57,648 nucleotides of DNA from an uncultured Bifidobacteriaceae bacterium (lineage in GTDB: Bacteria; Verrucomicrobiota; Verrucomicrobiia; Limisphaerales; JADLHS01): the NCBI GenBank assembly GCA_964456685.1, contig CAYWCK010000001.1:1-57648 (forward strand). Direction: 5' to 3'. The stretch's first letter is position 1. The number at the start of each line of letters is the position of its first letter. The notes under the pieces were generated by a model that saw only the letters and a program-made list of their open reading frames with translations, was not told the DNA's origin and searched no databases. Both the position numbers and the translations under genes were made by a program. Shown here in pieces: positions 6,592 to 23,142 of this stretch.

Positions 6592-9500
6592 TGAATGACC
6601 TTGAGGCGGTAAAAGCGCTGACCGTTTGGCGGCGCGCCGCCCGTCTGGGTGTAATCATCCACGAAAGTCTCCGATGACGGTGTGCCGTATGGAGCCGGAT
6701 CCATTTCCACATTCAACGGACGGACGACATCGATGAAGTTTCCATCCACGCCCCCACCGCCGTTCCCATTCGCGTACTGCACGCGATAACGCGTGCCGCC
6801 CACGGTTGGCCAGACCAGGGTCACATGGCCATTGGCTGCGCGCGTGGCGCTGCCGATTTGCAGCACCGAAGCGGCATTGGTCGGATTCGTGTTGGCGTAG
6901 TACTCCTGCAGGTTCGTCTCGCCGTCGCCATCGTCATCGGCACCCGGATTGGAAATCCCGAACATCGCCTCCCAACCATCCGGCAGACCGCTGGCGTTGG
7001 CGTCCGGCGGGGCGACGATGTTGAAATTCATCGTGGCGATCGAACTTCCGGCGGTGCCGTCGTGGGCGCTGAAGGTGAAACGATCTGAGCCGCGATAACC
7101 CCGCACCGGGATGTAAGTGTAAGCGCCACCGACGGGAGTGAAGGGCTTGAGCACGCCGTGCGTGGGCAGGGTGTTCGTCTGGAAGGTGAGCGTGTCGCCG
7201 TTCGGATCCACCGCCACGAGATTTAGGTTCGTCGGCGCATCGCCGTAAATGGTGATGAGCGCGTTGGCCACCGTCGGCGCCGTGTTGGGTGCGGTGGTGA
7301 ATCGCCATGCCGGGCTGGTGGTCGAGTTGCCGACTTCGTCATTGACGACCACATACCATTCATAGGCGGTGTTCGACTGGCGGCTTGGCCAGGGCAGGCT
7401 GGCAAGGTTGCCGGAGGGAACATTCGAAATCGTGCCAATCAGTGCATACGGTCCGCCGTTCGAACCCACGGGATGCGACATGTCGTAATCAAACCAGAAG
7501 TCACTGATTGGTCCCGTGGCATAGGTCTTGAAGTACGGCGAGTAGGTGGTGAGCACCACCTGATTCAAGCTGGGTGAGAAATCAATGATCCGCATGAAGC
7601 CGCTGCCACCGTTGGTCCAGCCCTGGTAATCCGAAACGAACGTGCGGACAGTGTTGCCTTGATAGGTGTCCGCACGCCACCCCTCACCCGTGACGTGGCC
7701 GGCCAACATCATGAAAACGTTCTTGTTCGTCTTGACGGCGTTGTAAATGGCGGTGCCTTGCGCGCTGAAACTGACCGGGATGGACGTGTTGCCGAAATTG
7801 TGGGTGACGATGATCGCGCGCCGATTCTGGTTCGTGCGCAACACGTCGTTGGCCCAATTCAACCATTGCGGATTCAACGTGTTGTCGAATTGCAGATAAA
7901 CCACAACGAAGTCCATGCCCCCGGCACTGAAGAAATCGAAATGGTTGTTGTTGTTTGTTCCCCAGTGGCCGGCGTAATACGGCTTGCCGGTGAAGTGGGG
8001 CACGCCGAAATACTCGTTGTAAAAAAGCGTCGTACCGGTGGAATCCCCAATTGGTTCCTCGTCATGATTGCCCACCGCCACGCCGTAGGGAATGCCGCCC
8101 GGCAACAAGGTGCGCCCGGAATCTTCCAGGCGATAAATGGCATTCGTCCCGTTGCGCCATTCCGTCCGGTTGTCGGCGCCGCTCTTAATGTCGCCATTCT
8201 GACTGAAATCGCCCAGATGCGCCACGTAGGCAATGTTGCGCGACACACGGTTGGTGATGATCCACTCGGCCTGCGCGATAAACATCTCCTTCGTTCCGCC
8301 GTTCAGTTCGCCGGTGTAGAACTGCGTGTCCGGCAGCGCGACGATTGAAAAGTCCACCGCCGGATTCACCTGGGCCACGCGACCGTAATAACTCACGGTG
8401 AGATTGCCGGGGGCGGCGTTGGAAACATTGACCTGCAGGTTGGGCGAATTGGGCTGGCCGACGGCATTGTGCAACGGCGCGACGACCGCCGCCGTGGCTG
8501 CCGCAGGAATGAACACAAACGAAGCCACTGGTTCGCCGCCGCCGCCGGGTGTCTGCAATCCAGGTGAGCTGGCCGGTAAATCACGGGATTGAATGATCCA
8601 GCCGTCGCCGTCCGGCTGATAACTGACGATGTTGTCCTGATTCTGACTGAGCCCGCCTTCCGCCGAAATGATGAGCACGCCGCCATCGGGTGAATGCCCC
8701 GGAATGGTCAAGCGCCAAGTGCCCGTGGCGGTGTTCGTCACGGTGTATGCCGGAGTGGCGCCGCTATAAATCAGGCGCGTTCCGTCACCGCGGAAACGGC
8801 CGGAAATGACGGTCGTGTTGGTCTTTGGGATGTACACGAACGCCACCGGGTCCTGTTCATACGAGCCGGCATCCGTGCCGTTGTCTTTCACATAAACCGT
8901 CCAAGTGCCGTTGTTGCTGTTGACTTGGGAGAGGGCGTAGTTGTCTTCATTCTTCCCGTGCGTCACCAGCAATACGCCGTCGGTGCGCGCGTCCACACCA
9001 AAGCTCGTGAGATTGACGATGTTCGTGCCGCCGCCAACGTTGACGTAATGCGTGCCGAGCACGAGACCGGGCGAGCCGGTGAAGAGGTCGTTCGGCCCAC
9101 CGTTAGTGGCGCCCGAGTTCCGCGCAAAACCGGCGAGCCAGTTGGAGTACGAGAAAAAGGCAGCGGCGATGTTGATGTTGAATTCGTCACCGGTCGGCGC
9201 TTGAAAGACGGGGATGTAAAATGCGCCGGCGCTCCCGCCGGACCGGCTGTAATCGATTGCCGTGGTGCAATAATTTACGCCGGGATAGGTGGCTTCGCCG
9301 TTGTCCCGGCCATTCTGCGCCACGCAGGTCATGACCACCCCATTGTCCACATCGTCGCTGAAGCCGATACCGATCTGGAGATTGAAATCGCCGCGGTTGG
9401 AATCCTCGCGGATGGTCAGGTCCCCGACGGTGAGTGTGGCGGTGACGGTGACGGAATCCACCGTATTGCTGATGTCATGTTGAACGACATTGATCAGCGC

Positions 9501-9617
9501 GGCGGCCACTGCCGGGTCGGCGTCCTGTGCGGATAGCTTCAAGCCCAGGAATGCAGTTGCACCGAACAGCGAAACTGCCAGCAACCTCCTGCACGACGTT
9601 AGACTTCTTAGTTTCAT
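6588..9617 (-). CDS. Giant secreted protein: N-terminal module of unknown function, a calcineurin-like metallophosphoesterase domain, Ig/cadherin-like repeats, a thrombospondin-type-3-like Asp-rich segment and a C-terminal 'FYRL' domain
   Basis: The ORF track gives 6588..9719. I prefer Met35 (ATG at 9617), which begins a signal peptide (MKLRSLTSCRRLLAVSLFGATAFLGLKLSAQD). Metallophosphoesterase motifs are ALPDTQFY, HLGDFSQNGD, VGNHDEE, IIVTHN and LAGHVTGEG. The Asp-rich segment is GADDDGDGETNLQEYYANTNP. The protein ends ...GQRFYRLKVIQ. Confidence 0.75.
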   Translation of the reverse strand: MKLRSLTSCRRLLAVSLFGATAFLGLKLSAQDADPAVAAALINVVQHDISNTVDSVTVTATLTVGDLTIREDSNRGDFNLQIGIGFSDDVDNGVVMTCVAQNGRDNGEATYPGVNYCTTAIDYSRSGGSAGAFYIPVFQAPTGDEFNINIAAAFFSYSNWLAGFARNSGATNGGPNDLFTGSPGLVLGTHYVNVGGGTNIVNLTSFGVDARTDGVLLVTHGKNEDNYALSQVNSNNGTWTVYVKDNGTDAGSYEQDPVAFVYIPKTNTTVISGRFRGDGTRLIYSGATPAYTVTNTATGTWRLTIPGHSPDGGVLIISAEGGLSQNQDNIVSYQPDGDGWIIQSRDLPASSPGLQTPGGGGEPVASFVFIPAAATAAVVAPLHNAVGQPNSPNLQVNVSNAAPGNLTVSYYGRVAQVNPAVDFSIVALPDTQFYTGELNGGTKEMFIAQAEWIITNRVSRNIAYVAHLGDFSQNGDIKSGADNRTEWRNGTNAIYRLEDSGRTLLPGGIPYGVAVGNHDEEPIGDSTGTTLFYNEYFGVPHFTGKPYYAGHWGTNNNNHFDFFSAGGMDFVVVYLQFDNTLNPQWLNWANDVLRTNQNRRAIIVTHNFGNTSIPVSFSAQGTAIYNAVKTNKNVFMMLAGHVTGEGWRADTYQGNTVRTFVSDYQGWTNGGSGFMRIIDFSPSLNQVVLTTYSPYFKTYATGPISDFWFDYDMSHPVGSNGGPYALIGTISNVPSGNLASLPWPSRQSNTAYEWYVVVNDEVGNSTTSPAWRFTTAPNTAPTVANALITIYGDAPTNLNLVAVDPNGDTLTFQTNTLPTHGVLKPFTPVGGAYTYIPVRGYRGSDRFTFSAHDGTAGSSIATMNFNIVAPPDANASGLPDGWEAMFGISNPGADDDGDGETNLQEYYANTNPTNAASVLQIGSATRAANGHVTLVWPTVGGTRYRVQYANGNGGGGVDGNFIDVVRPLNVEMDPAPYGTPSSETFVDDYTQTGGAPPNGQRFYRLKVIQ

Positions 9618-9679
9618 CTCCACTTGTTTCCGACGGTGGTCCCGCTTTGGGGCGAGAAAAAATCCGTCTTTTTGAACAA

Positions 9680-9707
9680 GCCGCAGGGCGGTTGCCCACC
9701 CTGCGGC
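9680..9707 (-). other. GC-rich hairpin between the two giant genes (possible intra-operon attenuator or mRNA-stabilising stem)
   Basis: A 9-bp perfect stem gccgcaggg (9680-9688) / ccctgcggc (9699-9707) with a 10-nt loop. No convincing U-tract follows on the minus strand, so it is not a clear terminator. Confidence 0.35.
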
Positions 9708-9753
9708 GTTGTTACTCACCTACAACCCAATCCCACCAACTCCAAAGAACCGA

Positions 9754-12700
9754 TCAAGGTATGGACGCTTTGTAGAACGCCGCCCCAGCGGGAGCAGTGT
9801 TGTCCACAAAGGAACCGGTACCACCGCCCGTGAAACTACCACTGCCGATATTGACATAGGTGCCGTCAACTGTGGTCGAGCGCCAGATGGTGAAGCCAGC
9901 TCCCGCCGGCCCACTCAGACTGAGCGTGGCACTGGTGGCCCCGCGGCTGATGTAAGTAATCACCGGCGCGGGGCTATAATAGACGCGCAAGAGCGGGCGG
10001 CTTTCCACCCACCCGTGATCGGCCGAATTAAACGCCCAGCCGTTATTGCCATTCGGCCAAGGCATTATGGCCCAGCCATTGTTGGCCGCGGCACCGCTCG
10101 CCCACGCCTGAACGTCGGCTGTGATTTCGATGTTGTGTTTGGTTGGCTGCACGGTTTCGCCCAGACCAGCGACGGGCAAGGTCACAGTTGGAGAAACCGC
10201 TGCATCCACACCATCCGTGTCCACGCCATTGATCCAAATGTCCCAGGTGTCAGCCGCGTTCCAGGATTTCAAAACGCGATAGAACTGAGCACCCGCACCT
10301 TGAGCATCGGCATTGATACTGGTTAGTTCGAGGATAGCTGCATTGATCCTTGATCCCGCCGGCACCTGGCCAGCGCTGCTGCCAATAATGTTGTCGAACC
10401 GAACCAGCACGTCGTTCTGATTTGGAACTGGAGTGGCCGCGACCAGCCAGTCGGGCGAGAGCACTGTGTTGCCCGCAAAGCTGGTAGTGGGGGCCGTCAG
10501 GCGGACTTGGGTGTCCACGGCGGCGCTGTAACCATTGACACCCTGCTGGAAGGTGGCCACTTGGCTTGAAGCCGGTGGCAGCCAGCCGACGCGCAAACGC
10601 GGGCGCAAGGTGATGTTGGTAGCTTCACACGGACTGAAGGCGGTACCATTCGCCCCATTCGTCCACGTACTCATTACCCAGCCGTAATTGTTCGTTCCGT
10701 TTGCCCAAGCCTGCACATCCGCAGTGACGCCGATGGTCCGCAAGCCAGTGCCGCTGGTTGTATTAGCCGCTTCATCACCCAAAAACGCATTGGTGCCCGA
10801 CACCGCCTCGATATTGTCCAATTGGATGCCGCTGCCAACGCTGTTGAAGGTAATCCCTTCATCCCAATCGCCGAGCATCCGATTGAAACGCGCGCCGTGA
10901 CCGCTATCGGCCACGTTCATAATCAATTCCGCGAAGACGATCTTGGCGCCGAGCGGAATCTGACCATCAGCATTGCCGACCAAATTGGTGAACTTGATGA
11001 AGCACTGCATCTGATCCTCGGGAATGATACTCAACGTGTCGAAATCTATCCACAGCCCCGCCGAGCTATAACCAGCCGGGAATGGCGTGTCGGGGAACTC
11101 GTGGTGGATCTGGGTATCGAGCGCGCTGGTGAACACGCCAAACCCGCCGTCCGCATCCTGCTGGTAGCTGTCGATGCGCATCAGTCGGATGGTGATTGCT
11201 TTGCCAACAGTGCTGACACCCCCATCGCCATCAGCGAGGGCAAACGAAAGCGTGCGGCTTTGCGGTGCGGCGCTGGCGTCCACATTCTGATAAGAAATGG
11301 CCCGAGCCAGCGCTTGAGCCGCCGCTGGAGTTGCGGCAGCGCTATTAAACGTGATGCTTAACGGAGTAACACCCACGCCGCCACTCTTCGTTCCGATAGC
11401 AACGCCTTCATAGGAAACCGTGCTTCCGGAAACCGAGATTTGGCCCGTGCCGGTGCCGATGTTGCGGACATCCAGCCGGTCGGAAGCGGTCGCGCCAGCC
11501 GTGATCGTGACCGTCAAACCACCGCCATTATAATCGGCAGTGTCTGGATCGTTCACGGTGGCATAACCATCAATACCCTTGGCGGCTTCACCAATACCGT
11601 AGGTGAACGTGCCGGATGGCAGCGTAAGTACGGCTTCATTGTCGAGTGTGGTCACACCCACGTCGTCCGGATTGATTGCCGCATAAAGCGGGTCGGTGCT
11701 GCTGACGGTCGTGATGATGGTGAAGTCAATCGGGCCATCATTGGTGAGATCGTCCACCGCGGTGACTGTGACATTCTGCGGAACATTCCAGTTGGCGGGG
11801 GTGAAGACTACTGAAGGCGTGACGGTGCCCTCGGTTGTGTCGCTGGATGCGCAGTTGATCGTCACATTAGCCGTCGGCTGACTGCCGAGAACCAGAGCAA
11901 AATTTGCGGTCGTGTTTGGCTCCGAAATGGTGAGTTTGCTAGCGGGAACAATGACGCGGGCCTGATCGTTATCCAAGTTTACACCGGCAGGATCAAGGGC
12001 GTTAAATCCATTGTAAGCGCCATCAGTGCTGGTGGCTGGGCCCAGCACAACGGTGTATGCAATGTTCCCGTCCTGCACGTCGTCATTGACGCCGGTCACG
12101 GTCACCACCTGCGGCGTGGCATAATCCGCGGGGGTGAAGGTCAGGCTGCTCGGTGACACCGTGGCTTCAGTGGTGTCGCTGGAGGAAACTGGCACGGTTA
12201 CATTATCTGTGGGCGCTGAAGTGAGCCAGACCAGGAAAGTGTTGGTACCACCCGATTCCGTAGTGATCACAGTGCTGGCGTCAACCGAAACCGCGCCCGG
12301 CTCGTTGTCCAGATTAACCAAACCAACGGTGCCTCCGCTCAGGGCGTTGTAATTGAGGTCGGTACTGGTCGTCGCTGACAGAGTAACGTTGTATGCTTTG
12401 CTTCCATCTGTCAGAACATCTTCCACGCCTGTGACGGTGACGGATTGCGGTACGTTCCAATCCGAAGGAGTGAAAGTGAGCGTTGTCGGACTGACCGTTC
12501 CTTCGGCGGTATCGCTCGACGCGACATTAATGGTCACGTTGTTGGTCATCTTGGGATAACCGTTGATGGTGACGGTGAAATTCGTGGCGCCGCCAGACTC
12601 GGTGGTCTGGAGGTTTGCGGTGGGTGCAATTGTTACACCCGGCTTCTCCGCTGGGATAAATACAAACGAGCAAACCGCTTCGGTGTCGGGTGGCGTTTGG

Positions 12701-13866
12701 AGTCCGCAGCCCGGGAGGTCGCGCGACTGAATTATCCAGCCATCACCAGCTGTATTCTTAGCAAAGGTCACGATGTTATCACCATTGTTGGCGTCGCCGC
12801 CAGCGGGCGATACAATCAGGATGCCATCTGCGGGAGACCGTCCGGGAATCTTGAGTTCATATTGGCCGGTGCTGAAATTGGTCACGGTAAACGCCGGGGA
12901 AGCGCCGCTGTGAATGGCGATGGCAGCATCACCCATGAACATTCCTGAGACGATCGTTGTGTCGGCTTTCGGCACAAATACGAAAGCAACAGGGTCTTGT
13001 TCATAGGAACGGCCATTGGCCCGATTGTCATGGGTATAGATCGTCCAAGTGCCATCCATTTCGTCGTCATCATTGTTGACGCGAGAAAGGGCATAGTTGG
13101 CTTCGTTCTTTGCGTGGTTCACCAAGAGGACACCATCGCGGCGTGAGTCAATTCCAAAGGGCCGAAGATCGAGGTAGTAAACGCCATTTGCCACCGCGTC
13201 GCTGATGGCGCTGTTGGTCCAGTAATCCCGGAAATGCGTTCCCAAAACCAAATCTGGAGAAGCAATTAGATTCGTTAGTTCCAAGCCGTTGGCACCGTTC
13301 AAGGCGTAACCGCCACGCCACGTCGTAAACGGAAAATACGCCACGGTGACATCCACATTGTCCTCACCTTGGTTGGCCGTGGTGCTGGAATTCGGCGGGC
13401 AGCGGAATATGCCTGCTTCCCAATAGCCACCCCCGTAAGGAATCGCGCAGGGGGTTTGAAAGTTGTTCGTGAAAGCGCTCGCGCCGTTGGTCCAGTTGGC
13501 CCGGCCGTTTTGGGCCGATGAAACCATGATTACGCCAGCGTTTGTATCATCGGCGAAGCTATCGCCGATCTGGACTCGGTAGTCTCCCATGTTGACAACA
13601 TTACTCACCACCGACAGCCCATTTACACTCATCAGGAGTGCGGCGGTGGTGTTGGTGTTGTCGTAATATCCGGCGACGGTTTGATCGATCTTGAGATAGC
13701 CGGCCGAAATGTTGTGGCCGACGCGATCCGCGCGGGCGTTTGTGGCCAATCCCAAGCCCGCAAGAATTGCGAGTACTAGGAACAGCTGGTTCAAGCGCGG
13801 AAGCGCGTGCCTGAGGGAGTCGCCTGGGATGCGGCGCATTTCAGTGGTTCGTGCAGTTGGTTTCAT
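9754..13866 (-). CDS. Giant secreted protein (1370 aa): the same N-terminal unknown module as the 1043-aa ORF, three Calx-beta/cadherin-like repeats, two DNRLRE-like beta-sandwich repeats and a C-terminal 'FY' domain
   Basis: Signal peptide is LFLVLAILAGLGLATNARA. The N-terminal roughly 310 aa are collinear with the 1043-aa ORF at 6588..9719 (YEQDPVAFVF, GDGWIIQSRDLP, FVFIPA). Three repeats of about 110 aa contain SSDT(A/T)E(G/A)TV(S/T)P..LTFTP..W..PQ.VTVTGV.D. Two later repeats resemble DNRLRE-type domains (FDNIIGSSAGQVPAGSRINAAILEL...FYRVLKSWN). The domain family names are tentative. Confidence 0.75.
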   Translation of the reverse strand: MKPTARTTEMRRIPGDSLRHALPRLNQLFLVLAILAGLGLATNARADRVGHNISAGYLKIDQTVAGYYDNTNTTAALLMSVNGLSVVSNVVNMGDYRVQIGDSFADDTNAGVIMVSSAQNGRANWTNGASAFTNNFQTPCAIPYGGGYWEAGIFRCPPNSSTTANQGEDNVDVTVAYFPFTTWRGGYALNGANGLELTNLIASPDLVLGTHFRDYWTNSAISDAVANGVYYLDLRPFGIDSRRDGVLLVNHAKNEANYALSRVNNDDDEMDGTWTIYTHDNRANGRSYEQDPVAFVFVPKADTTIVSGMFMGDAAIAIHSGASPAFTVTNFSTGQYELKIPGRSPADGILIVSPAGGDANNGDNIVTFAKNTAGDGWIIQSRDLPGCGLQTPPDTEAVCSFVFIPAEKPGVTIAPTANLQTTESGGATNFTVTINGYPKMTNNVTINVASSDTAEGTVSPTTLTFTPSDWNVPQSVTVTGVEDVLTDGSKAYNVTLSATTSTDLNYNALSGGTVGLVNLDNEPGAVSVDASTVITTESGGTNTFLVWLTSAPTDNVTVPVSSSDTTEATVSPSSLTFTPADYATPQVVTVTGVNDDVQDGNIAYTVVLGPATSTDGAYNGFNALDPAGVNLDNDQARVIVPASKLTISEPNTTANFALVLGSQPTANVTINCASSDTTEGTVTPSVVFTPANWNVPQNVTVTAVDDLTNDGPIDFTIITTVSSTDPLYAAINPDDVGVTTLDNEAVLTLPSGTFTYGIGEAAKGIDGYATVNDPDTADYNGGGLTVTITAGATASDRLDVRNIGTGTGQISVSGSTVSYEGVAIGTKSGGVGVTPLSITFNSAAATPAAAQALARAISYQNVDASAAPQSRTLSFALADGDGGVSTVGKAITIRLMRIDSYQQDADGGFGVFTSALDTQIHHEFPDTPFPAGYSSAGLWIDFDTLSIIPEDQMQCFIKFTNLVGNADGQIPLGAKIVFAELIMNVADSGHGARFNRMLGDWDEGITFNSVGSGIQLDNIEAVSGTNAFLGDEAANTTSGTGLRTIGVTADVQAWANGTNNYGWVMSTWTNGANGTAFSPCEATNITLRPRLRVGWLPPASSQVATFQQGVNGYSAAVDTQVRLTAPTTSFAGNTVLSPDWLVAATPVPNQNDVLVRFDNIIGSSAGQVPAGSRINAAILELTSINADAQGAGAQFYRVLKSWNAADTWDIWINGVDTDGVDAAVSPTVTLPVAGLGETVQPTKHNIEITADVQAWASGAAANNGWAIMPWPNGNNGWAFNSADHGWVESRPLLRVYYSPAPVITYISRGATSATLSLSGPAGAGFTIWRSTTVDGTYVNIGSGSFTGGGTGSFVDNTAPAGAAFYKASIP
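11635..12636 (-). repeat. Three tandem in-frame coding repeats of about 330 bp (Calx-beta/cadherin-like domains) inside the 1370-aa gene
   Basis: They cover aa ~411-522, 523-635 and 636-744. Each contains (V/C)(A/S)SSDT.E.TV.P...FTP..(W/Y)..PQ.VTVT.V.D...DG. The repeats are diverged at the DNA level. Confidence 0.7.
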
Positions 13867-13940
13867 GGTTTGGGCTGGTTGTTCTTGGGTGGGGTCAAAT
13901 GAATTTACGGCGGGTAGGAGTTGGTGACGGCAACAGTTTT

Positions 13941-14765
13941 TCAGTACGGCCCGGTCGGTCCAAGATAATTAGAATCGCCGCCGATGTTCCAGACGCGGAG
14001 AAAGTTCTTCTTTGTGACCCACTCAGCATGACCGTCCAAGAACGCGAACACTTGGCCTTCGGCTCCGTGATTGTCCATCTTATCGGGCCAATTGTTATAG
14101 TCTCCGGCACCGGCGTCATCGTCACCATCGGTAATCATGAAGGCTTCGGAAGGGCTGACTCTGCGCCCGATTCCGCCCGGAACGTAATTCTGGAGCACAA
14201 AGCTCGACAACCGGCGTTCGCTCTTCTTGCCAGGAACAGTCGTGCTGGTGCCCCAGACACCGAAGCATTCATAGCTATGGCCGTTGGAATCAATCGCCCG
14301 TCCGTTGTTCGCCAAGTCCGCAATGACGACCTTGCTGTTCCAGCCGGCGGCAGCGATGGTAACCGTGTTGGTGCGGATTTTGTTGCGAGTGCCGGGGCAG
14401 ATAAAAGCCCCCGTGCCAGGAACATAAGTTGGGTTCAGCCAGCTCAAATCATCATCGGAGCCGCTGCGAGTACCACCGGAAGGGATGTTTGGAATCTCAC
14501 CAGGAACCCAAGTATCACCACAAAAGTCACCATTGCTATCATCGGCGTACATCATGGAGCCGAGACCCAATTGCTTTAGATTGTTCAGGCAGCTGGTTTG
14601 GATGGCTTTCCTCTTGGCGCGAGTCAGGGCCGGCAAAAGCATGGCGGCCAGAATTGCAATGATGGCAATAACGACCAGCAATTCGATCAAGGTAAAGCCG
14701 GTCCGGCCGGCGCGACGCGCATTTCCCCCGCACGTCGAGGACTTCAGATGGTGTTTCATTTTCAA
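13941..14765 (-). CDS. Prepilin-type N-terminal cleavage/methylation domain protein with a DUF1559-like 'H-X9-DG' C-terminus (pseudopilin-like)
   Basis: The N-terminus [27 protein letters not shown] is a canonical type IV pilin/T2SS pseudopilin leader plus hydrophobic helix. The C-terminus carries FLDGHAEWV. It is the first gene of the long minus-strand gene string. Confidence 0.8.
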
Positions 14766-14920
14766 TTACTCACGATAATAACTGACCGCGCTAATCTGAC
14801 GAGCGAAAGCCAAGGCCGAAGGGTAACTTTTCGATTACAACGTAACAAATCAGTAACCAGCCATCCCACACCCGCCGTGCCGCACCGTGCGGCACTGCCC
14901 ACAAGCTTTTACGCTTGGTT

Positions 14921-14938
14921 GCGCGTTAACGCACTAAG
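14921..14938. promoter_or_regulatory. Candidate operator, copy a: gcGCGTTAACGCactaag
   Basis: The core GCGTTAACGC (14923-14932) is a perfect palindrome. It lies in the 290-bp divergent region between the DUF1559 gene (start 14765) and the GDPD-LamG gene (start 15056). It shares TTAACGCACTA(A/G)G with the sites at 21248 and 23059. Confidence 0.5.
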
Positions 14939-15055
14939 CAAACACCGCCTGTAAAAGTTGTCAATGGTTTGGTTGGGTTCATTCCTGAATACCTATTCTG
15001 CCGTTGCCGCGATTGCTATTTGACGGTTTGTCGGCCAATGCAGTAACTCCAAGCT

Positions 15056-16837
15056 ATGTTTGGCCGTATTCTTTTCGGGCCGGTTCTTCTGGCGATCATT
15101 TGTCTTTCCGGTGCGGGACTGCAAGCGGCAGGGGTCTTGAGCATTGGGCACCGGGGCAACTCGCTTTTTGCTCCCGAAAACACTCTCGCGTCGTTTGCCG
15201 CCGCACAAGGCAAGGCGGATTTGGTGGAAACGGACGGGCGGCTAAGCGCAGACGGCGTGCTGGTGATCATGCACGATGCCACCGTGGATCGCACCACGGA
15301 CGGCACGGGCACGATTGGCAGCCAAACCGTAGCGCAGCTCAAACTGCTCGATGCAGGCTCCTGGTTCAGTTCCGCTTTCATCGGCGAACGCATTCCCACA
15401 ATGGAGGAAATGATCACCAACACGGTGCCCTTCGCCACCCCATTGATCGAGCAGAAGGATGGCCCGGCCACTGCCTACGTGGATGAATTGCGCCGGCTGA
15501 ACGCCGTCACCAACGTCATTCTTCAGTCCTTTGATTGGAATTTCCTCGCCGCCGTCCACGCGCTCGAACCCGCTGTGCGGCTGGGGGCGCTGGGCAGCGG
15601 CACGTTCACAACCGCGATCCTCACCAACATCATCAACAGCGGCGCGACCATCGTGGCCTGGGAAAAGACGTCCGTCACCCCCACGGTGCTCAACCAAGTG
15701 CATGGTGCCGGACTGAAATTGTTCGTCTGGACAGTGGACAGCGGCACGGAAATCCAGCAGTTCATCAACCTCGGGGTGGATGGGATCATCTCCAATGATC
15801 CGGCCACCGTCAAAGGCCTGCAGCAACCGCCGCCCACCAACGCGCCGGCCTATTTGGGTGACCGGCTCGTGGCGTATTGGAAGATGGATGATGGGCTGAC
15901 GAATGCTTTCACCACCACGGTCGCTGACAGCAAGGGCAGCAATGCAGGAGCGCTGGTGCGCAACGACGGCGCGTCCCACTGGTTCACCGAGCCTTTGGCC
16001 AAATTGGACGGCTGCCTGAAACTGGAAGGTCTCAATGCGTTCGTTACCCTGCCGCAAACGGCGGATCTGGACATCAATACCAACCAGTTCACGCTGTCCG
16101 CTTGGGTCCGGCTGCAAAACCTGCCGGCCCAACTCGCCGCCAGCTTCGGCGCCATCTTCGATTCGACCAATGATTGCTACGTTCTGTATCTCGACAAGGC
16201 GAACAATGAATTGCGGTTCAAAGTCACCACCGCCAACGGTCACGCCGCCCGTCCCGGGATTCCGGCAAGTTCGCTCCAGACCAATCAATGGCTGCATGTG
16301 GTGGCCACGTTTGACGGCCAGGCCTATCCCGCCTCCGGCGAGGCGGTCATTTACCTCAACGGCGTGGAGATGGATTCACACATTGGCAACGACGGCGGTG
16401 GCGGAACAGGTCTGACCGGCAATGTGAAGGCCGGGCAGTTGGCTGGCCTTGGCCGGGAAGGATGGGTGGGCGCCAACTATTTTACCGGCTATGTGGATGA
16501 TGTGGCCATCTGGAAGCGGGCACTTACGGCCGCCGAAGTTCAACAAGTGTTTGCCGCTGGGCAGGCCGGCGAAAGTCTGGGTGACCTGCTACGCCTCCCC
16601 ACCTCGCTGATTCAATTCGTTTCCGCGAGCAAAGCCACGGGGGACGGTGGGATCGAAATTGTGTTCACGAACCTGGGCTCGTGGAATTCGTTCCGGCTGC
16701 TACGTGCAACCCAGCTCGCCGGACCGTATCAGGCGGTTGAGGGTGTGAATGCGGTGGCGTTGGGGGGCGGCCAGTATCGCTTCAACTACTCCCCCACTGC
16801 GGGCGGACCGGAATACTTCCGCATCGAGGGCCGCTGA
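15056..16837 (+). CDS. Secreted glycerophosphodiester phosphodiesterase (GDPD) fused to a LamG/concanavalin-A-like domain and a C-terminal 'FYRI' domain
   Basis: Signal peptide is MFGRILFGPVLLAIICLSGAGLQAAG. GDPD motifs are GHRGNSLFAPENTLASF, ETDGRLSADGVLVIMHDATVDRTTDGTG and QSFDW. LamG-like region: LVAYWKMDDGL...FTLSAWVRL...WLHVVATFDG...IYLNGVE...GYVDDVAIWKRALTAAEV. The protein ends ...PEYFRIEGR. Confidence 0.85.
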   Translation: MFGRILFGPVLLAIICLSGAGLQAAGVLSIGHRGNSLFAPENTLASFAAAQGKADLVETDGRLSADGVLVIMHDATVDRTTDGTGTIGSQTVAQLKLLDAGSWFSSAFIGERIPTMEEMITNTVPFATPLIEQKDGPATAYVDELRRLNAVTNVILQSFDWNFLAAVHALEPAVRLGALGSGTFTTAILTNIINSGATIVAWEKTSVTPTVLNQVHGAGLKLFVWTVDSGTEIQQFINLGVDGIISNDPATVKGLQQPPPTNAPAYLGDRLVAYWKMDDGLTNAFTTTVADSKGSNAGALVRNDGASHWFTEPLAKLDGCLKLEGLNAFVTLPQTADLDINTNQFTLSAWVRLQNLPAQLAASFGAIFDSTNDCYVLYLDKANNELRFKVTTANGHAARPGIPASSLQTNQWLHVVATFDGQAYPASGEAVIYLNGVEMDSHIGNDGGGGTGLTGNVKAGQLAGLGREGWVGANYFTGYVDDVAIWKRALTAAEVQQVFAAGQAGESLGDLLRLPTSLIQFVSASKATGDGGIEIVFTNLGSWNSFRLLRATQLAGPYQAVEGVNAVALGGGQYRFNYSPTAGGPEYFRIEGR

Positions 16838-16846
16838 CCGGCGAAA

Positions 16847-17395
16847 TCAATCGAGCATGTTCGTGGGAAATTCCGGCGTTTTCCCTTCGTTGATCTCGCG
16901 GCTCCATTCGTCAAGCCGGTTGCGATTCCAGAATTTGGCGCAGGCCTTGAAGTAATCGAGGACGGCCTGCCGCTCGCCTTTCTGCAGAAGCTCCGAAGCC
17001 AGGCCCAGCTTGGGCCCGTAATCCATTAGGCGCGGTCCGGGTGTGCTCGCCGACTCCATCAATTGTCGCTTCGCCTCGTCCAACCGGCCGTCGCGCAACG
17101 CCACCCGGCCGAGCACTTGGTGGGCGACGTGTGCCGCGTCACCGGTGTTGGCGTTGCCGCGTGCGGACGTGAGAAGAGTAATCGCTTCCTGCGCGTATTT
17201 TTGCGATTCCGCCGTTTGTCCGGCCACCAGACTTTGCCGGGCCGCCTCCGCCAGCGCCGGCAGCCGCACTTCGGGGGTCGTGGCGGCCTTCAAATTCTCC
17301 AGCGCCGGTTGCAGCAGCGGATTGTCCTTGCCGGCGCCGCCTTTGCCGCAACCCAGGATCAAGCCACAGAGAATAATTACGATGAAGCCTCGCAT
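16847..17395 (-). CDS. Lipoprotein, helical/TPR-like, unknown function
   Basis: The ORF track gives 16847..17464. I prefer Met24 (ATG at 17395), which gives MRGFIVIILCGLILGCGKGG with a lipobox (LILGC) and removes the overlap with the upstream gene. No recognisable catalytic motif. Confidence 0.55.
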   Translation of the reverse strand: MRGFIVIILCGLILGCGKGGAGKDNPLLQPALENLKAATTPEVRLPALAEAARQSLVAGQTAESQKYAQEAITLLTSARGNANTGDAAHVAHQVLGRVALRDGRLDEAKRQLMESASTPGPRLMDYGPKLGLASELLQKGERQAVLDYFKACAKFWNRNRLDEWSREINEGKTPEFPTNMLD

Positions 17396-17442
17396 AGTGA
17401 ATGCCTCGCACCGGCGAACGATTTTCGCTTCCCTTGCCTGCT

Positions 17443-18324
17443 TCAGGGAATCCGGCGGGTGCAATTGTCCTGCATCCAGGCTACGTCTGGATTGTTGGGC
17501 GTAGGTTTGAAATTGAAATCGTAGTTTTGCCCCTTGATTAGCTTAGGGGTGGTGCGGGGATCCCGCCAATGTTTCAATTCCGAGTGACCGTCGGCGAACG
17601 AAAAGCCACCTGCGCCACCGTGATAAGCCGCCGGGTAATCAATGATGCCGTAGTTACCCGGCGAGGCCGCGCCGCCCAGCGTCGTTGCTGCACCTTCCAT
17701 GGCGATCACGAACATCCCGTCATTGATGCTGTCTTCGCGCTCATCCAGGAACACAGTGGTCCGGGACGGGCCCGGATCGGTCATGTCGTTAAACTTGCGG
17801 TAAATGCGCGCTTCCCCGCTGGAATTGCCAAGGGCAGTTTGCGACCAGTTCAACGCGGCGAGTTGTCCGCCGCTGCCACGGCCACCCACCCAGGCCACCA
17901 TGGACATGCTCCGCACGCGCGGCATCATGGTGCCCCGAACGTTCACGGCACTCTGGTCGGAGGGGCACCGGAAAATGCCGCCGCTCTTGCCGCAGTAGGG
18001 CCACAGGATGCCGACGCTAATGTCGTGATTAATGTCCCAGTTGTCGGCCGCCGAGCTGTAATCGAGCCAGCCATTACACCAGGCGTAGGGATCGTAATTG
18101 CCGTTCCCTTTGGTGAAAGGCAGGACGTCCCGGTTGTCATCCACATACATCTTCCACGCCAGCACCAGATGCTTGTGGTTATTCATGCAGTAAATGCCCT
18201 GGGCTTTGGTCTTGGCCCGCGACAGGGCGGGCAAAAGCATCGCCGCCAGGATGGCGATGATGGCAATCACCACCAGCAACTCGATCAAAGTAAAACCACG
18301 GCGGCCTGTCAGTTTGCATTTCAT
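17443..18324 (-). CDS. Prepilin-type N-terminal cleavage/methylation domain protein with a DUF1559-like 'H-X9-DG' C-terminus (pseudopilin-like), second copy
   Basis: The preferred start is Met17 (ATG at 18324): [38 protein letters not shown]. The C-terminus carries [13 protein letters not shown]. Confidence 0.8.
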
Positions 18325-18402
18325 AACTGTTCCTTTCGCGCCGGGACGATGGCGTCCATCGTCCCGGTTCAAACTAATCTCAGTGGCATCGTTCCGCCAC
18401 CA

Positions 18403-21153
18403 TCACCGATGGGCCACGATTCGATAGAACGCTCCGCCTGCCGGCGGCGCCGTATCGGTGTATTGCGTCGTGGTCAGGTCCCCGGTGAGATCCACCAGGT
18501 TGTTCACGGTCGTGCCGCGTTGGACGCGGTACCTCACTGCGCCCGCGTTCTGCCATTCCAGTTGGAAAGAGTTCCCTACGCGGACAGCCTTGGTAACGGG
18601 GAACGACGGCATGGCAAACGCCTCGTTGTGGAGGATGATCAATCGACCGCCGCCGCCATTCGAGAGGCTGCTGTCGGTGACGACCAGGAAGTCGCCATTG
18701 GGCGCAAATGCCATACCGGGATCGTGGAAATCAATCTGGCGATCCGGACGCAACAAGTCGGTGAGGGGGAATCCGATCTCGCGCACGTCGGCGCCGGTCG
18801 AGGCGTCCACCGACCACAACTCGTCCTTCAGGTCATCCGCCACCCAGATTCGGCCCGTCGTGATATCCGTGGCCAAAGCGGCGCCGGAAGCGGGACCACC
18901 CAAAGGCCATAGGGTGAGTGCGTTGATGTAGCGGAGCGCGCCGCTGCCATTGATCGCCACCAAATAGCCGTCTTCACTCAGCGTCACGACTTCGCCTGAC
19001 GCCGGCAGCGCCGTGATCGCATTGAGGTTGTTCCCGAGATCGGAGCCAGACGGGGCATTCAGGAACAGATTGTAATTGGTCTGGTCAAGAGATGTTGTGG
19101 CCGGATCCACCACATAAGTTGCGTTGGGCGCATCGCCGTCCACACCGCGGTCAGCCACGACGATCCAGCCCGGCTGACCAACACTGCCAGTGAAGTTGAA
19201 AGGTGCCACCGCAACGTCGATGGCATCGTCATCCAAATTGGGGGTTGCGGAAGAACTCACGTCCGCGATGATCGTTTCGGGCACATTGCTCGTCCACGGC
19301 CACTTCAAGCGGGCGAGGGAACGCGTGAAATCATTGTTGAAATCGTGCGTCCACCAGATCGTGCCGTTGGTCTGGATGGCCAGGCCGGAGGGCCGGTCCA
19401 AGCCGCTGACGATGGGAGTCGGATCAATGGCCCAGTTGCCGCTGCCGATTTTCTTCGCTTGGTAGATGCCACCCCCGGCGACATCGGTCGTGAAAAGAAT
19501 CGTGGAGTTATCCCGAGGATCCACCGCCGGCCGGCCCACGGGACCGTTCACGCTGACGATGCTCCAGTTGGTGAAACGCGTGCCGTAGTTCGTAATTCCA
19601 TAAGGTTCACCTAGAGATGCGGGATTCGACACCAGCGATTTGACCTCGATATCATCAATGTAAACCGGCGGATGGTTGGTCCCATTGGAGGTGCTCCATG
19701 CCGCCATGAAGGTAGGACCCCAATTGGCCGCCGAGCCGACGAAGGCGGCCCGATCGACCAGCAATATTGGGTTGGCGCTGCTGGGATTCTTCACAATGGT
19801 GTATCGTCCCTGAGTGTTGTGGGTCGTGAGTCTGTATTCCTCCCAAACATTGGGCGTGTAATCGGCCGTGGTATCCTGCCAGCCGTTCAAGAAATAGATC
19901 AGCGAGGTGCCGTCCACGCAGTTGGTATTGCTTTGCCGGCGAATGCCATGTCCCAAAAGCGCGGAGTCGCCCGCGATGGTGTTGCCACCTTCCGCACCAT
20001 ACAGCGACATGCGGAGGTAAACAGCATCGTCAGTGGGATTGATCTGAACGGCTTCCGGCACCTTGGCCCACCAGGTGACTTGAACATCTGATTGCGGCGG
20101 CACGCCCCAGGCCAGGCTCGCACCCGCGCGTTGTCCGCCTTCAAGCTTGAGGCACTTGCTGCCGGAGTGCGGCGTTACAACGTCCGTGCCCACCACTTGC
20201 ACTTTACCGGGAGCGCGCAGACGGCCCTGACCAGTGCCATCCACTTCGGTCGTAATCCACGGTCCCTGGGGATCGGCGTCATCTGTGGACAAACTCCGCG
20301 CGGGATAATTTTCAAAGCCATCCGTGAAGGTGGTGCTGAGGTCGCGCGAGTCATCCACCGTCAGGCTGATATCGTCCAAAAATACGCTCCCGTCGTCCGC
20401 CGTGTTGCCTTCATTGCGCAAAATGATGTGAGAAATGACTGGAACTTCGCACCGCGAGAGGTCCGCGTTACTGAGCACCGGCGTGACCATATCGTCAATG
20501 TAAAGCGTGAAGGTTTGTGCATTTGGATCGATCACCATGCGGTGATGCTGCCAGACATAATTCAGGTGGTTGGTACCTACCGCAGTGAATGCAGCTGTCC
20601 CAGGCCCCACGGCATCGAAGTAATACAGCGCAGAAGAATTAGTGGCGCGGTCGGTGCGATAGGCGAGGAAATCATCGCCGTTGATGTCGGTGCCCTCGCC
20701 CCGCAGGATGACGTAAAAACTCTGACTGCTGGTGGGCCCGCGGCCAATCCACGCGTTGAAGTCAAATTGATAGCGCGTCCCACTGCGTGCACCGGCGAGA
20801 TATAATTGCGCCTCGCTGCTGGGCCGCAGAAGCAGCGACTTGGTGGCGCCGCCGCTGGCATTGGTGTGCCAATTTACCACTTGCACACCGGCTCCGGCGG
20901 TCGTCGGGAGCAACGCCGTGTCGTCGGTAATGTTCCATTCCGAGCCGACGGGATCGGCGTCCTGGGTATCTCCGTCGCTGGTAGCGACCGTGCCGTAGCT
21001 CTCGAAGTCGTTGGCGTAAATCGTCGCCGTGGCGGCGTGAAGTGGCGACGGTACGAGGCAGACGGCCACCGCCAGAACAGCGGTGAAAGCAGCTGTGATG
21101 CGCGCCAATATGGATGATACCTCGCGAATTTTGCCCTTGGTGGTTGTTTGCAT
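18403..21153 (-). CDS. Large secreted protein (916 aa), unknown function, with beta-propeller-like C-terminal half and a C-terminal 'FYRI' domain
   Basis: Signal peptide is ITAAFTAVLAVAVCLVPSPLHAA. I recognise no catalytic motif. Repeated strand-like segments (GGIYQAKKIGSGNW..., GLAIQTNGTIWWTHD..., GRIWVADD..., GDFLVVTD) suggest a propeller. The protein ends ...GGAFYRIVAHR. Confidence 0.7.
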   Translation of the reverse strand: MQTTTKGKIREVSSILARITAAFTAVLAVAVCLVPSPLHAATATIYANDFESYGTVATSDGDTQDADPVGSEWNITDDTALLPTTAGAGVQVVNWHTNASGGATKSLLLRPSSEAQLYLAGARSGTRYQFDFNAWIGRGPTSSQSFYVILRGEGTDINGDDFLAYRTDRATNSSALYYFDAVGPGTAAFTAVGTNHLNYVWQHHRMVIDPNAQTFTLYIDDMVTPVLSNADLSRCEVPVISHIILRNEGNTADDGSVFLDDISLTVDDSRDLSTTFTDGFENYPARSLSTDDADPQGPWITTEVDGTGQGRLRAPGKVQVVGTDVVTPHSGSKCLKLEGGQRAGASLAWGVPPQSDVQVTWWAKVPEAVQINPTDDAVYLRMSLYGAEGGNTIAGDSALLGHGIRRQSNTNCVDGTSLIYFLNGWQDTTADYTPNVWEEYRLTTHNTQGRYTIVKNPSSANPILLVDRAAFVGSAANWGPTFMAAWSTSNGTNHPPVYIDDIEVKSLVSNPASLGEPYGITNYGTRFTNWSIVSVNGPVGRPAVDPRDNSTILFTTDVAGGGIYQAKKIGSGNWAIDPTPIVSGLDRPSGLAIQTNGTIWWTHDFNNDFTRSLARLKWPWTSNVPETIIADVSSSATPNLDDDAIDVAVAPFNFTGSVGQPGWIVVADRGVDGDAPNATYVVDPATTSLDQTNYNLFLNAPSGSDLGNNLNAITALPASGEVVTLSEDGYLVAINGSGALRYINALTLWPLGGPASGAALATDITTGRIWVADDLKDELWSVDASTGADVREIGFPLTDLLRPDRQIDFHDPGMAFAPNGDFLVVTDSSLSNGGGGRLIILHNEAFAMPSFPVTKAVRVGNSFQLEWQNAGAVRYRVQRGTTVNNLVDLTGDLTTTQYTDTAPPAGGAFYRIVAHR

Positions 21154-21247
21154 AATTGACTGGGTGGTGACTGTACTAATTTTCAGTTTTGCCCCGGCAT
21201 GGAAGCGGCGGCGCTTCTAACTATCTCCGTTCACACATTGGGTTAAT

Positions 21248-21266
21248 TGTGCGTTAACGCACTAGG
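21248..21266. promoter_or_regulatory. Candidate operator, copy b: tGTGCGTTAACGCACtagg
   Basis: A 14-bp perfect palindrome GTGCGTTAACGCAC (21249-21262) lies about 95 bp upstream of the 916-aa gene start (21153) and just downstream of the GntR stop (21288). It fits the general GntR-family operator shape GT-N-AC. Confidence 0.55.
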
Positions 21267-21287
21267 TAACAGGCTGACCAAGGCAAG

Positions 21288-22127
21288 TCAATGTGCTTTC
21301 TGTGATCGAGATGCCGCCGCCTCGCGCTGCGGGTTGGCTTTGGCGGCAAAACGGTACATGTCGCCGCGATAAACCGCATCTTCCATTTCGATGATCAGAT
21401 TCCGGCCGCAGAAAGACGCCCCCTCAACGCGGAAAGCCGGTACCGGGTTGGTCAGGTTAAAATGCTTTAGTTCCTCTTTTTCCAGAATGACGGCACTGAC
21501 CATCTGGTTGATTTCGGTGAGGTGAATGCCGTACTCGCGCTCAAAAACATCATAGAGCGACTGTTCCAAGTTCTTCTTGTGGATGTCGGGACACAAGCCG
21601 AGCGAAAGATAGCGCGTCTCCTTCATCATCGGGATGCCGTCGGCGTAACGGATGCGGACAATCTCACAAATGGGCGCTTTGAGAGTGAACTCGCGCCCAT
21701 TGATGGTCTGGGTGTGGTCGTCGTCGCGGAGATGAAAGCCGATCAACTTGGTCGCCGGCTTGCGGCCCGCTTCCAGCATGTTCTTGGTGAAACCGAAGAT
21801 GCGGTTGATGGTGCGCAGCACTGTGAAGTCGCGGACAAAGGTGCCCTTGCCCTTCATCCGGGTGACCCAGCCTTCTTTTTCCAATTCGTGCAGCGCTTTG
21901 CGGGCGGTGGTGTTGCTGACCCGATACTTCTCGATGATTTCGTTCTCCGAAGCCACGGGCGAGCCGGGCAAAAGCCGGCCGCTCTGAATCTGCGAGACAA
22001 TGTCCCGGGTGATCTGGAAATACTTGGGTGGGCCGTATTTTTCTGATTCCACAGCGCTGGATTGTTCCGTTGGAATTACCGCCACAGATCCACGGTTTGT
22101 CAAGACCGCCACCGGGCCAAGTTGCAT
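21288..22127 (-). CDS. GntR-family transcriptional regulator, HutC subfamily (winged HTH plus UTRA effector domain)
   Basis: HTH region: YFQITRDIVSQIQSGRLLPGSPVASENEIIEKYRVSNTTARKALHELEKEGWVTRMKGKGTFV. The C-terminal half resembles UTRA (ICEIVRIRYADGIPMMKETRYL). The true start may lie downstream of Met1. Confidence 0.85.
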   Translation of the reverse strand: MQLGPVAVLTNRGSVAVIPTEQSSAVESEKYGPPKYFQITRDIVSQIQSGRLLPGSPVASENEIIEKYRVSNTTARKALHELEKEGWVTRMKGKGTFVRDFTVLRTINRIFGFTKNMLEAGRKPATKLIGFHLRDDDHTQTINGREFTLKAPICEIVRIRYADGIPMMKETRYLSLGLCPDIHKKNLEQSLYDVFEREYGIHLTEINQMVSAVILEKEELKHFNLTNPVPAFRVEGASFCGRNLIIEMEDAVYRGDMYRFAAKANPQREAAASRSQKAH

Positions 22128-22175
22128 TTGAATTCGTGCGCCGCCGCTGGGCTGCGTGTGATCAGCGGTTCAGGC

Positions 22176-23075
22176 TCAGGGCAGAATTTTGGATTGCCGC
22201 AGCGCAACCGCCCGCCAGATGATGGAAGTGTTGTTGGTAATGATTCCGTCCACGCCCAAATCCATCAGGCGGTTCGCCTCGGCTTGATCATTGATCGTAT
22301 AAACCCAGATTCGGACACCTTTGCTGTGGGCGTAATCCACGGCTTCCTTCGTCACTTGATTATTCCACCCAATGACGCGCACGCCGCTTTTCAGGGCCAG
22401 ATCCACCCATTCCGGGTTGAGGACTTTCTCGGGCGCGGACAGCTTCTTGCCGTCCTTGCTGGAAAGCGGTCCCAGCGCGCCCAGCACCTGTTTTGCCTCC
22501 AACGCATGGAAATCAGCCAGGTAATTCCAGTCGAATGACTGGACCACCAGTTTGTTGACCAAGCCGCGGGCCTGCAACATCTTCACGCACGTGGCCGCAT
22601 CGCCTTCTTTGCGCTCGATCAAGGTCATGTTCCCGTCCTGAATCAAATCCAATGCTTCCTCTAATGTCGGGACTTTCGTGCCCGCGAATTGCGGATCAAA
22701 CCACTTGCCCGCATCCAACTCCTTCAGTTCCGCCAGCGTCTTGCTGTCGAGCTTGATCTTGCTGCCGCCCCAACGGCTCGTGGCGTCCGTGGTGCGGTCC
22801 AGCGTGCCGTCGTGCATCACCACCAGCTTCCCGTCCTTGGAATGGTAATAGTCCAGTTCAACCAGGTCCGCTCCGGCCTTCTTCGCCAGCTTGAATGAGG
22901 GCAAGGTGTTCTCCGGCGCAATCTCACTGTAGCCGCGATGCGCAATGACGAGCGTCCGAGGAGAGTTCACGAGCTTTTCCGCCGGGGAGCCGCCATCGGC
23001 GGCAGTGGCAGTGGTGAGGGTCATAGCCATAACTCCTCCGAGGAGGAAAAAGCGAATACTTAGTGCGTTAAGCAT
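22176..23075 (-). CDS. Secreted glycerophosphodiester phosphodiesterase (GDPD, GlpQ/UgpQ-like)
   Basis: GDPD motifs are VIAHRGYSEIAPENTLPSF, ELDYYHSKDGKLVVMHDGTLDRTTD and QSFDW. The ORF track start is 23105. I prefer Met11 (ATG at 23075), which gives a signal-like MLNALSIRFFLLGGVMAMTLTTATA. The start is uncertain. Confidence 0.85.
   Translation of the reverse strand: MLNALSIRFFLLGGVMAMTLTTATAADGGSPAEKLVNSPRTLVIAHRGYSEIAPENTLPSFKLAKKAGADLVELDYYHSKDGKLVVMHDGTLDRTTDATSRWGGSKIKLDSKTLAELKELDAGKWFDPQFAGTKVPTLEEALDLIQDGNMTLIERKEGDAATCVKMLQARGLVNKLVVQSFDWNYLADFHALEAKQVLGALGPLSSKDGKKLSAPEKVLNPEWVDLALKSGVRVIGWNNQVTKEAVDYAHSKGVRIWVYTINDQAEANRLMDLGVDGIITNNTSIIWRAVALRQSKILP
23059..23075. promoter_or_regulatory. 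Candidate operator, copy c (one good half-site): cTTAGTGCGTTAAgcat
   Basis: TTAGTGCGTTAA is the reverse complement of the TTAACGCACTAA seen at 14927-14938. The second half is degenerate (AAGCAT instead of AACGCAC). It overlaps the preferred ATG of the GDPD gene. Confidence 0.4.
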
Positions 23076-23142
23076 GGTGCGACTTTGCGACCCGTTGATA
23101 TCCAAGTCAAGAGACGTTTCGTTGCTACCTGCCGGCGCCAGG

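Follow-up and report, generated by a model that had tools for sequence, protein, structure and literature searches.

In Escherichia coli and Pseudomonas, the glp regulon is controlled by GlpR, a DeoR-family repressor that responds to a glycerol-3-phosphate (G3P)-type inducer and acts on glpD, glpT, and a glpQ-type glycerophosphodiesterase (GDPD) gene. Another described group of regulators, the HutC subfamily of the GntR family, includes NagR (YvoA) of Bacillus subtilis and DasR of Streptomyces, both of which combine a GntR winged helix-turn-helix (wHTH) domain with a UTRA domain. NagR binds the 14-base-pair (bp) palindrome GTGGTCTAGACCAC, although all of its natural sites are non-palindromic, and it reads G-7 with the wing residue Gly69, G-5 with Arg38, and G-4 with Arg48 (PMC4333415). 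Here we analyzed a 57,648-nucleotide (nt) stretch of DNA from an uncultured member of the Verrucomicrobiota (GenBank assembly GCA_964456685.1, contig CAYWCK010000001.1, positions 1 to 57,648; hereafter the window), in which a short motif, TTAACGCACTARG, occurs at three places around a gene for a HutC-subfamily GntR regulator (21288..22127, minus strand; an open frame of 279 amino acids [aa]). The motif is very probably the operator to which this locally encoded regulator is predicted to bind, and the genes that would be under its control recall those of GlpR.

The three strings that a first-pass annotation had reported are all present in the window, i.e., gcgcgttaacgcactaag at 14921-14938, tgtgcgttaacgcactagg at 21248-21266, and cttagtgcgttaagcat at 23059-23075, where the last ends on the minus-strand ATG at 23075-23073. 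The perfect 14-bp palindrome reported at about 95 bp from the gene of a 916-aa protein lies at 21249-21262, and the ATG of that gene (21153) is 96 bp away. The 13-mer said to be common to the three sites and not noticed by eye elsewhere in the window, TTAACGCACTARG, has exactly three matches there and none in each of 100 dinucleotide-preserving shuffles. In the whole assembly (5,804,902 bases in 780 contigs) we recovered the same three matches, all inside 8.2 kb, and no further copy with up to one mismatch, so that the motif is not one that is spread over the genome regardless of gene context; about 0.2 matches per genome would be expected from base composition (60% G+C) by our own estimate. 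When the genome was scanned with a weight matrix of the half-site, two of the three sites headed the ranking with 20.7 bits each, and the second site (at 21248-21266), which carries the TAGG variant, scored 15.1, inside the range of unrelated one-mismatch matches (15.4-14.1). Scored on both halves, this second site ranked second genome-wide, with 18.6 versus 10.3 for the next match. The next-best palindromes (on contigs C46, C251, and C250) were considered as additional regulon members and rejected as chance matches, as each of them falls within a long open frame.

The full site is an imperfect 22-bp palindrome with the halves CTTAGTGCGTT and AACGCACTAAG and a 14-bp core, GTGCGTTAACGCAC, in which one half is nearly invariant and the other degenerate. 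Using only GTGCGTYAA as an unbiased seed (89 distinct occurrences), we found (C/G)TTA directly upstream of the seed in 69 of the 89, and the opposite half was conserved at C+3 (71%), G+4 (52%), C+5 (65%), C+7 (45%), and A+9 (63%). Because both features emerged under the unbiased seed, we take the unit to be an imperfect 22-bp palindrome with a strong and a weak half. All three putative operators in the window are read on the minus strand. Site 1 (14917..14938) has the frame GGTTGCGCGTT and AACGCACTAAG, with its strong half at 14928-14938 and the core GCGCGTTAACGCAC at 14921-14934, and site 2 (21245..21266) has the frame AATTGTGCGTT and AACGCACTAGG, with the perfect palindrome at its center. 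Site 3 (23059..23071) is a half-site only; its sense sequence, TTAACGCACTAAG, forms codons 2-6 (LNALS) of the GDPD gene. The earlier claim of one conserved half-site at the start of the GDPD-GntR unit thus stands in a refined form, with the half-site inside the coding region and the ATG at 23075, and the same arrangement, CCATGCYTRACGCACTAAG, was found in three other genomes of two other genera, i.e., in three genera with that of the window.

The regulator itself carries a GntR wHTH domain (PF00392, E = 5.7e-16, residues 36-98) and a UTRA domain (PF07702, E = 3.4e-25, residues 120-259), the same pair as in NagR and DasR, and it aligns over its full length with both (1e-29 and 1e-23, respectively). 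Its similarity to PhnF/PhnR and HutC is at the level of the subfamily (NCBIfam E of 1e-21 to 1e-29), but the scores fall far under the equivalog cut-offs, as they do for every NCBIfam equivalog (e.g., 101.9 bits versus 220 for HutC), and no phn or hut genes are found in the predicted regulon. The site has the geometry of a HutC-type operator, a short GT...AC palindrome of ~14-16 bp: within the same 14-bp frame, GTGCGTTAACGCAC shares G-7, T-6, G-5, and T-1/A+1 with GTGGTCTAGACCAC, and, as in NagR, the natural sites are asymmetric and are predicted to overlap promoters. In contrast to the NagR operator, the inner core is CGTT/AACG rather than GTCT/AGAC, and conservation reaches four bases further out (CTTA, -11 to -8).

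The reading head differs as well. When the regulator is aligned with NagR, the wing glycine is kept (G93 for Gly69), whereas Asn62 and Asn72 stand in the places of Arg38 and Arg48. All 62 Verrucomicrobiota orthologs (50-81% identity, from species-representative genomes) share the two asparagines; an outgroup from Granulicatella has Arg/Arg at these positions. The recognition segment SEN..VSNTTARK is essentially invariant among the orthologs, and its VSNTTARK part is invariant, as is the motif. An invariant reading head and an invariant site that both depart from NagR and DasR form the pattern that would be expected of a cognate pair. With the two asparagines, the sub-cut-off scores, and a predicted regulon that contains no amino-sugar genes and would serve the use of glycerophosphodiesters and G3P instead of amino sugars, the protein does not qualify as the NagR/DasR ortholog of the dre regulon; judged by sequence, it is structurally nearest to these two regulators but is not their ortholog. 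The phosphate ligands of NagR (Thr90, Arg133, Arg135, and Ser165-Ile166-Tyr167) align with T114, R158, R160, and S190-L191-Y192, and because these six positions are kept, a phosphorylated inducer is likely.

We then compared the motif across 61 genomes, comprising that of the window and 60 sampled relatives. Regulator orthologs (68-80% identity) were detected in 20 of the 60 relatives and the exact motif TTRACGCACTAAG in 22 of the 61 genomes, including all 21 regulator-positive ones (21/21), while 38 of the 39 regulator-negative genomes other than genome G033 were without it. Within the genus labeled g3, the motif occurred in 12 of 12 genomes with the regulator versus 1 of 12 without, and a reversed-pattern control gave 13 scattered matches in the 61 genomes. 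Conservation beside orthologous intergenic regions, for which footprinting had been proposed, was found in many genomes: the motif has the same position relative to orthologous genes in at least six genera, it is present at orthologous genes even where these are unlinked to the GntR gene (L044-L046 and L049-L051), and it occurs within 3 kb in ~40 of the 62 Verrucomicrobiota GntR loci, down to 50% identity (L113). None of six Granulicatella outgroup loci (31-33% identity) had a site. In three genomes without a regulator ortholog (G045, G055, and G059), the 916-aa gene is retained together with its N-methyl partner and partly the GDPD-LamG gene, and in these we found no site with up to two mismatches and none rightly placed at three. 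The site is therefore a companion of the regulator that is lost with it, and G033 is the exception.

Such co-occurrence by itself cannot tell the regulator from any other gene that is inherited with the regulon, and another protein might bind the motif while the adjacent GntR protein regulates something else. A candidate is at hand in the assembly's only DeoRC gene, a member of the DeoR family at the edge of a 4.9-kb contig (G000, C408:6-458), if not some unrecognised factor, and two further observations would fit: G033 has sites and no detected GntR ortholog, and the loci of genus g3 in which the regulator comes first have no site in a sensible place upstream of it, even with up to four mismatches. 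We nevertheless consider this reading improbable, because in most loci of the 62 genomes the site lies within ~100-300 bp of the GntR gene, the length and outer bases of its core are those of the HutC-type (NagR) operator, the recognition helix is as invariant as the motif, and the conserved surroundings of the locus showed no further regulator gene. The same g3 loci limit the earlier claim of autoregulation, which would hold, through site 3, only where the GntR gene follows the GDPD gene and not where the regulator comes first with no upstream site.

The placement of the motif relative to promoters was examined on 103 distinct sites, oriented as CTTAGTGCGTYAA for spacing counts. TTGAC, usually preceded by an A-rich tract, stands 19-21 nt upstream in 50 of these (class A) and 6-8 nt upstream in 12 (class B), while all the remaining 50-odd offsets together account for 6. 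At its predicted position, a class A site would have its strong half over the -10 region and its palindrome center near +1, and a class B site would lie within the -35/-10 spacer. That 62 of the 103 sites fall at two TTGAC offsets strongly suggests an overlap of operators with the predicted promoters, a layout that is typical of a repressor, and many relatives have a second copy of the motif 47-78 bp downstream, in the leader. In the window, site 1 is of class A on the minus strand, with a putative -35-like TTGACA (14959..14964, minus strand) 20 nt upstream of CTTAGTGCGTTAA, and it covers the -10/+1 region of the putative promoter of the DUF1559 operon; class A sites also precede DUF1559 homologs in L024, L041, L042, and L047. 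Site 2 is likewise of class A, with a putative -35-like TTGACT (21286..21291, minus strand) that overlaps the GntR stop codon (21288-21290), and it covers the -10/+1 region of the putative promoter of the 916-aa operon; at least 16 relatives have an orthologous site ahead of their 916-aa gene.

A different reading is that the conserved sequence serves chiefly as part of the promoter itself, e.g., as a discriminator or a -10 of unusual type that is recognized by RNA polymerase or by a dedicated sigma factor. In favor of this, half of the sites stand at a fixed distance from TTGAC, the invariant half, (TA)CTTAGT, occupies the place where a -10 hexamer is expected, and the orientation of that half towards the downstream gene is consistent. 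However, the 13-mer is found as well within the -35/-10 spacer (class B), as a second copy downstream of the promoter with no TTGAC, and inverted inside the first GDPD codons, and no single promoter role can fit all of these positions. In addition, the partner half is conserved palindromically, and genomes that bear the targets and have no regulator have no motif either, all of which makes a promoter element a somewhat poorer candidate than a second regulator. Least credible of all, to the point that we give it hardly any weight, is an RNA-level element (hairpin, terminator, or leader) or a non-regulatory leftover of duplicated or mobile DNA: although GTGCGTTAACGCAC can make a 5-bp stem and the GntR stop codon precedes site 2 by 22 nt, a terminator or hairpin at site 2 is contradicted by the missing T-run, by a scan that calls no terminator there, and by copies that mostly are not self-complementary and keep their sequence rather than their pairing (no compensatory changes were seen), while copies occur in both orientations relative to transcription and their flanks cannot be aligned with one another, so that they form no repeat element.

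Returning to the regulator as the binding partner of the motif, the third unit shows a different arrangement. Its putative promoter (23082..23110, minus strand) consists of TTGACT (23110-23105), 17 nt, CAAAGT (23087-23082), and 6 nt to the ATG (23075), and the pattern TTGACT-17 nt-CA(A/T)(A/T)(G/T)T-6 nt-ATG is shared by four genomes of three genera (that of the window, G010, G004, and G039). Because the -10-like hexamer is only 6 nt from the ATG and this geometry is conserved, the GDPD-GntR transcript is probably leaderless, and site 3, which is inverted, would then have its half-site among the first transcribed bases, from +4 to +17. The GDPD-LamG gene (15056..16837, plus strand; Pfam GDPD and Laminin_G_3), which diverges from the DUF1559 operon, has a similar putative promoter, with TTGACG (15020-15025), 17 nt, GTAACT, and 7 nt to the ATG. 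In relatives, the motif lies in the spacer of the GDPD-LamG promoter (class B). Since site 1 is accompanied by a conserved -35 box on the minus strand, it appears to face the DUF1559 operon and not GDPD-LamG. The motif had been claimed to precede all three transcription units of the locus, which is borne out for the DUF1559, 916-aa, and GDPD-GntR units and not for the GDPD-LamG promoter, which is without an operator.

A run of TTGAC, 17 nt, a weak -10, and a start codon 6-7 nt further on was observed in the window at 23073-23110 and 15020-15058 and in L059, L065, L014, L024, and L038, and no Shine-Dalgarno sequence was found at these GDPD and GDPD-LamG starts. This suggests that leaderless mRNAs, some of them GTG-started in genus g3, are used in these Verrucomicrobiota. 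A literature search on leaderless promoters in Verrucomicrobia found nothing relevant. A separate observation concerns the presumed 165-nt leader of the DUF1559 operon, in which a perfect 9+1+9 palindrome of 19 bp, GTGCCGCAC-C-GTGCGGCAC (14877-14895), lies ~35-50 nt past the transcription start predicted for site 1; it is single-copy in this genome and was found in no related locus.

Several points weigh against the motif being the operator of the GntR protein. Among the genomes, G033 carries a pair of good sites ahead of its 916-aa gene, and no regulator ortholog was found in it (the assembly is 88% complete, and its best match to the regulator, E = 4.8e-8, covers the HTH only). Co-occurrence counts overstate independence, as the genomes share kinship, and motif, targets, and regulator could have been inherited together as one block. 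A classical GlpR may be encoded elsewhere in the genome by the DeoR-family gene of C408. At the level of the site, conservation is weak in one half of the palindrome, site 3 consists of a half-site alone, and the spacer of the window's GDPD-LamG promoter was found to hold no operator. Finally, a strict scan for promoters of the E. coli type passes over the proposed ones, as their -10 hexamers score below threshold, and gives a single background-level alternative at 14802-14775; because such a scan misses weak -10 hexamers, the promoters proposed here rest on the conserved spacing of TTGAC. Set against these points, a cognate regulator-operator pair is supported by the specificity of the motif, its conservation, its co-occurrence with the regulator in all regulator-positive genomes, its absence from nearly all regulator-less genomes, its overlap with predicted promoters, and its fit to the family, so that the assignment to the local GntR/HutC protein made in the first-pass annotation is upheld. 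This is most likely a well-supported but ordinary kind of gene switch, of the known HutC type and in the role of GlpR.

If the three sites act as operators, the regulon is larger than the small one proposed earlier, the existence of which is supported by the comparative data. The regulator gene is preceded by a gene for a predicted secreted GDPD (22176..23075, minus strand; Pfam GDPD, 8.6e-42), which has a signal-peptide-like N-terminus and is separated from it by a 48-bp gap. Site 2 precedes the 916-aa exoprotein operon (16847..21153, minus strand), in which the 916-aa gene (18403-21153) is followed by an N-methyl/DUF1559-like gene (17443-18372; Pfam N_methyl and a weak DUF1559 match) and that of a putative 205-aa lipoprotein (16847-17464), and this gene order is kept downstream of class A sites in relatives. 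Site 1 is followed by a probable long operon (1..14759, minus strand) of co-directional genes with 4-nt overlaps or gaps of up to 110 bp, in which no terminator-like sites were found. From its first gene onwards, it comprises a DUF1559 gene (13941-14759; N_methyl and a weak DUF1559 Pfam match), two giant exoproteins of 1370 aa (9754-13866) and 1043 aa (6588-9719), a 705-aa protein (4474-6591), a HAD hydrolase (3551-4477; assigned by Pfam), GlpD (2025-3554; Pfam DAO and DAO_C), a GlpT-like major facilitator superfamily (MFS) transporter (562-1914), and a second one cut by the window end (1-525), all on the minus strand.

Relatives point in the same direction. Among the relatives' loci, 17 hold HAD and GlpD genes, followed in most cases by a GlpT-like gene. 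In 16 of these, the genes are downstream of a class A site, which they follow directly (L023, L025, and L038) or as the last part of an operon that starts with the 916-aa gene or with N-methyl genes; the exception is L040, in which no class A site was seen. Through the long operon, the regulon thus probably extends to HAD, glpD, and two GlpT-like genes. In L038 (6271-10654, genome G031), the class A site is followed by glpD, a sulfatase, a GlpT-like MFS gene, GntR, and GDPD, with the sulfatase inserted in the glp operon. In five loci of genus g3 (L039:12079, L040:14062, L041:14470, L042:13980, and L047:3967), a one-mismatch variant, CTTAGAGCGTTAA, lies inside the 5' coding region of glpD, where it encodes LRALT; the GlpD of the window has the same peptide, SLRALT, in different codons with no motif. 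The variant may be a weak internal operator or a coding coincidence.

Other neighbouring genes would not belong to this regulon. Two M16 peptidase genes (23143-26293) lie directly upstream of the GDPD gene on the same strand, in the same order as in G010 (L029); no operator was found before them, the GDPD gene has its own putative promoter, and the pair is outside the predicted regulon. A second cluster copy with the 916-aa, N-methyl, lipoprotein, and GDPD-LamG genes was seen in genome G017 (L124, C160:1-7795) with no operator, and the other copy in that genome (L045) has one. For the 916-aa protein, no Pfam or NCBIfam family was found. The only sequence matches of its residues ~550-611 are designed Pizza (NHL-type) six-bladed beta-propellers (E up to 6e-12), which makes an NHL-type beta-propeller region in this secreted protein likely; a faint NHL-repeat match near 760-773 and a weak C-terminal match to an Fn3-like domain were also noted. 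Public bins with this verrucomicrobial locus (L055, L057, L058, L061, L066, L088, and L105) are titled "uncultured Bifidobacterium/Bifidobacteriaceae," which is probably a labelling error. For the genome of the window, hints from Verru_Chthon and Amuc_1099 point to Verrucomicrobiota of the Limisphaerales/Pedosphaera type.

Comparison with GlpR suggests how such a system may work. In both cases, one repressor would preside over glpD, glpT, and GDPD genes, with a likely phosphorylated inducer (G3P). The regulator described here belongs to an unrelated protein family, however: it has no DeoRC domain, its match to HTH_DeoR is marginal beside the strong GntR match, and it does not have the DeoR-type HTH and DeoRC combination of GlpR. 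Its operator differs as well, and the regulon here also includes giant exoproteins and pseudopilin-like N-methyl/DUF1559 proteins. Literature searches for a description of this regulon, or of any HutC/GntR protein that regulates glycerophosphodiester genes, found nothing relevant. By analogy, the regulator would play the part of the DeoR-family GlpR of E. coli, and its effector is probably a phosphorylated product of the pathway, for which G3P is our best guess.

Mechanistically, we propose that a dimer of the regulator sits over the -10/+1 region of sigma-70-like promoters at sites 1 and 2, over the -35/-10 spacer of the GDPD-LamG promoter in relatives, and over the first transcribed bases (+4 to +17) of the apparently leaderless GDPD-GntR transcript at site 3. 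Because the sites are placed over promoter regions, repression would work by blocking RNA polymerase. The genes released upon induction would be those of two secreted glycerophosphodiesterases, the 916-aa secreted protein with its pseudopilin-like partner, and the long operon that runs from DUF1559 via the giant exoproteins to HAD, glpD, and the GlpT-like transporters. The secreted GDPDs may free G3P from glycerophosphodiesters, which GlpT would import and GlpD oxidise, and the exoproteins would be co-regulated with this G3P pathway.

For a clade that is represented by metagenome-assembled genomes only (Limisphaerales/Pedosphaera-type Verrucomicrobiota), these results offer a regulon that can be tested, in which a HutC-family protein apparently takes the role of the DeoR-family GlpR. 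The predicted reading of a HutC operator by Asn/Asn, and not by the canonical Arg/Arg, would be useful for the specificity rules of the GntR family, and the promoter-operator cassettes give a first view of the putative promoters of this group (TTGAC -35 boxes, A-rich tracts, and probable leaderless starts). If the half-site in codons 2-6 of the probably leaderless GDPD mRNA (MLNALS) is indeed an operator, the regulator would constrain the sequence of a signal peptide. For the pseudopilin-like DUF1559 proteins and the uncharacterised exoproteins, their likely link to the metabolism of glycerophosphodiesters and G3P is also a lead on function. We tentatively go one step further, to a scenario that we regard as possible rather than probable, in which a G3P-sensing HutC repressor co-induces the secreted GDPDs, the 916-aa secreted protein and the giant exoproteins with the pseudopilin-like N-methyl/DUF1559 proteins, and the uptake and oxidation of G3P as a dedicated system for harvesting extracellular glycerol-phosphate. 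If this is true, the DUF1559/N-methyl proteins, which form a very large family of obscure function in the Planctomycetota-Verrucomicrobiota group, would gain their first defined physiological context, namely the capture or processing of phosphodiester-linked polymers, e.g., teichoic acids or phospholipid head groups.

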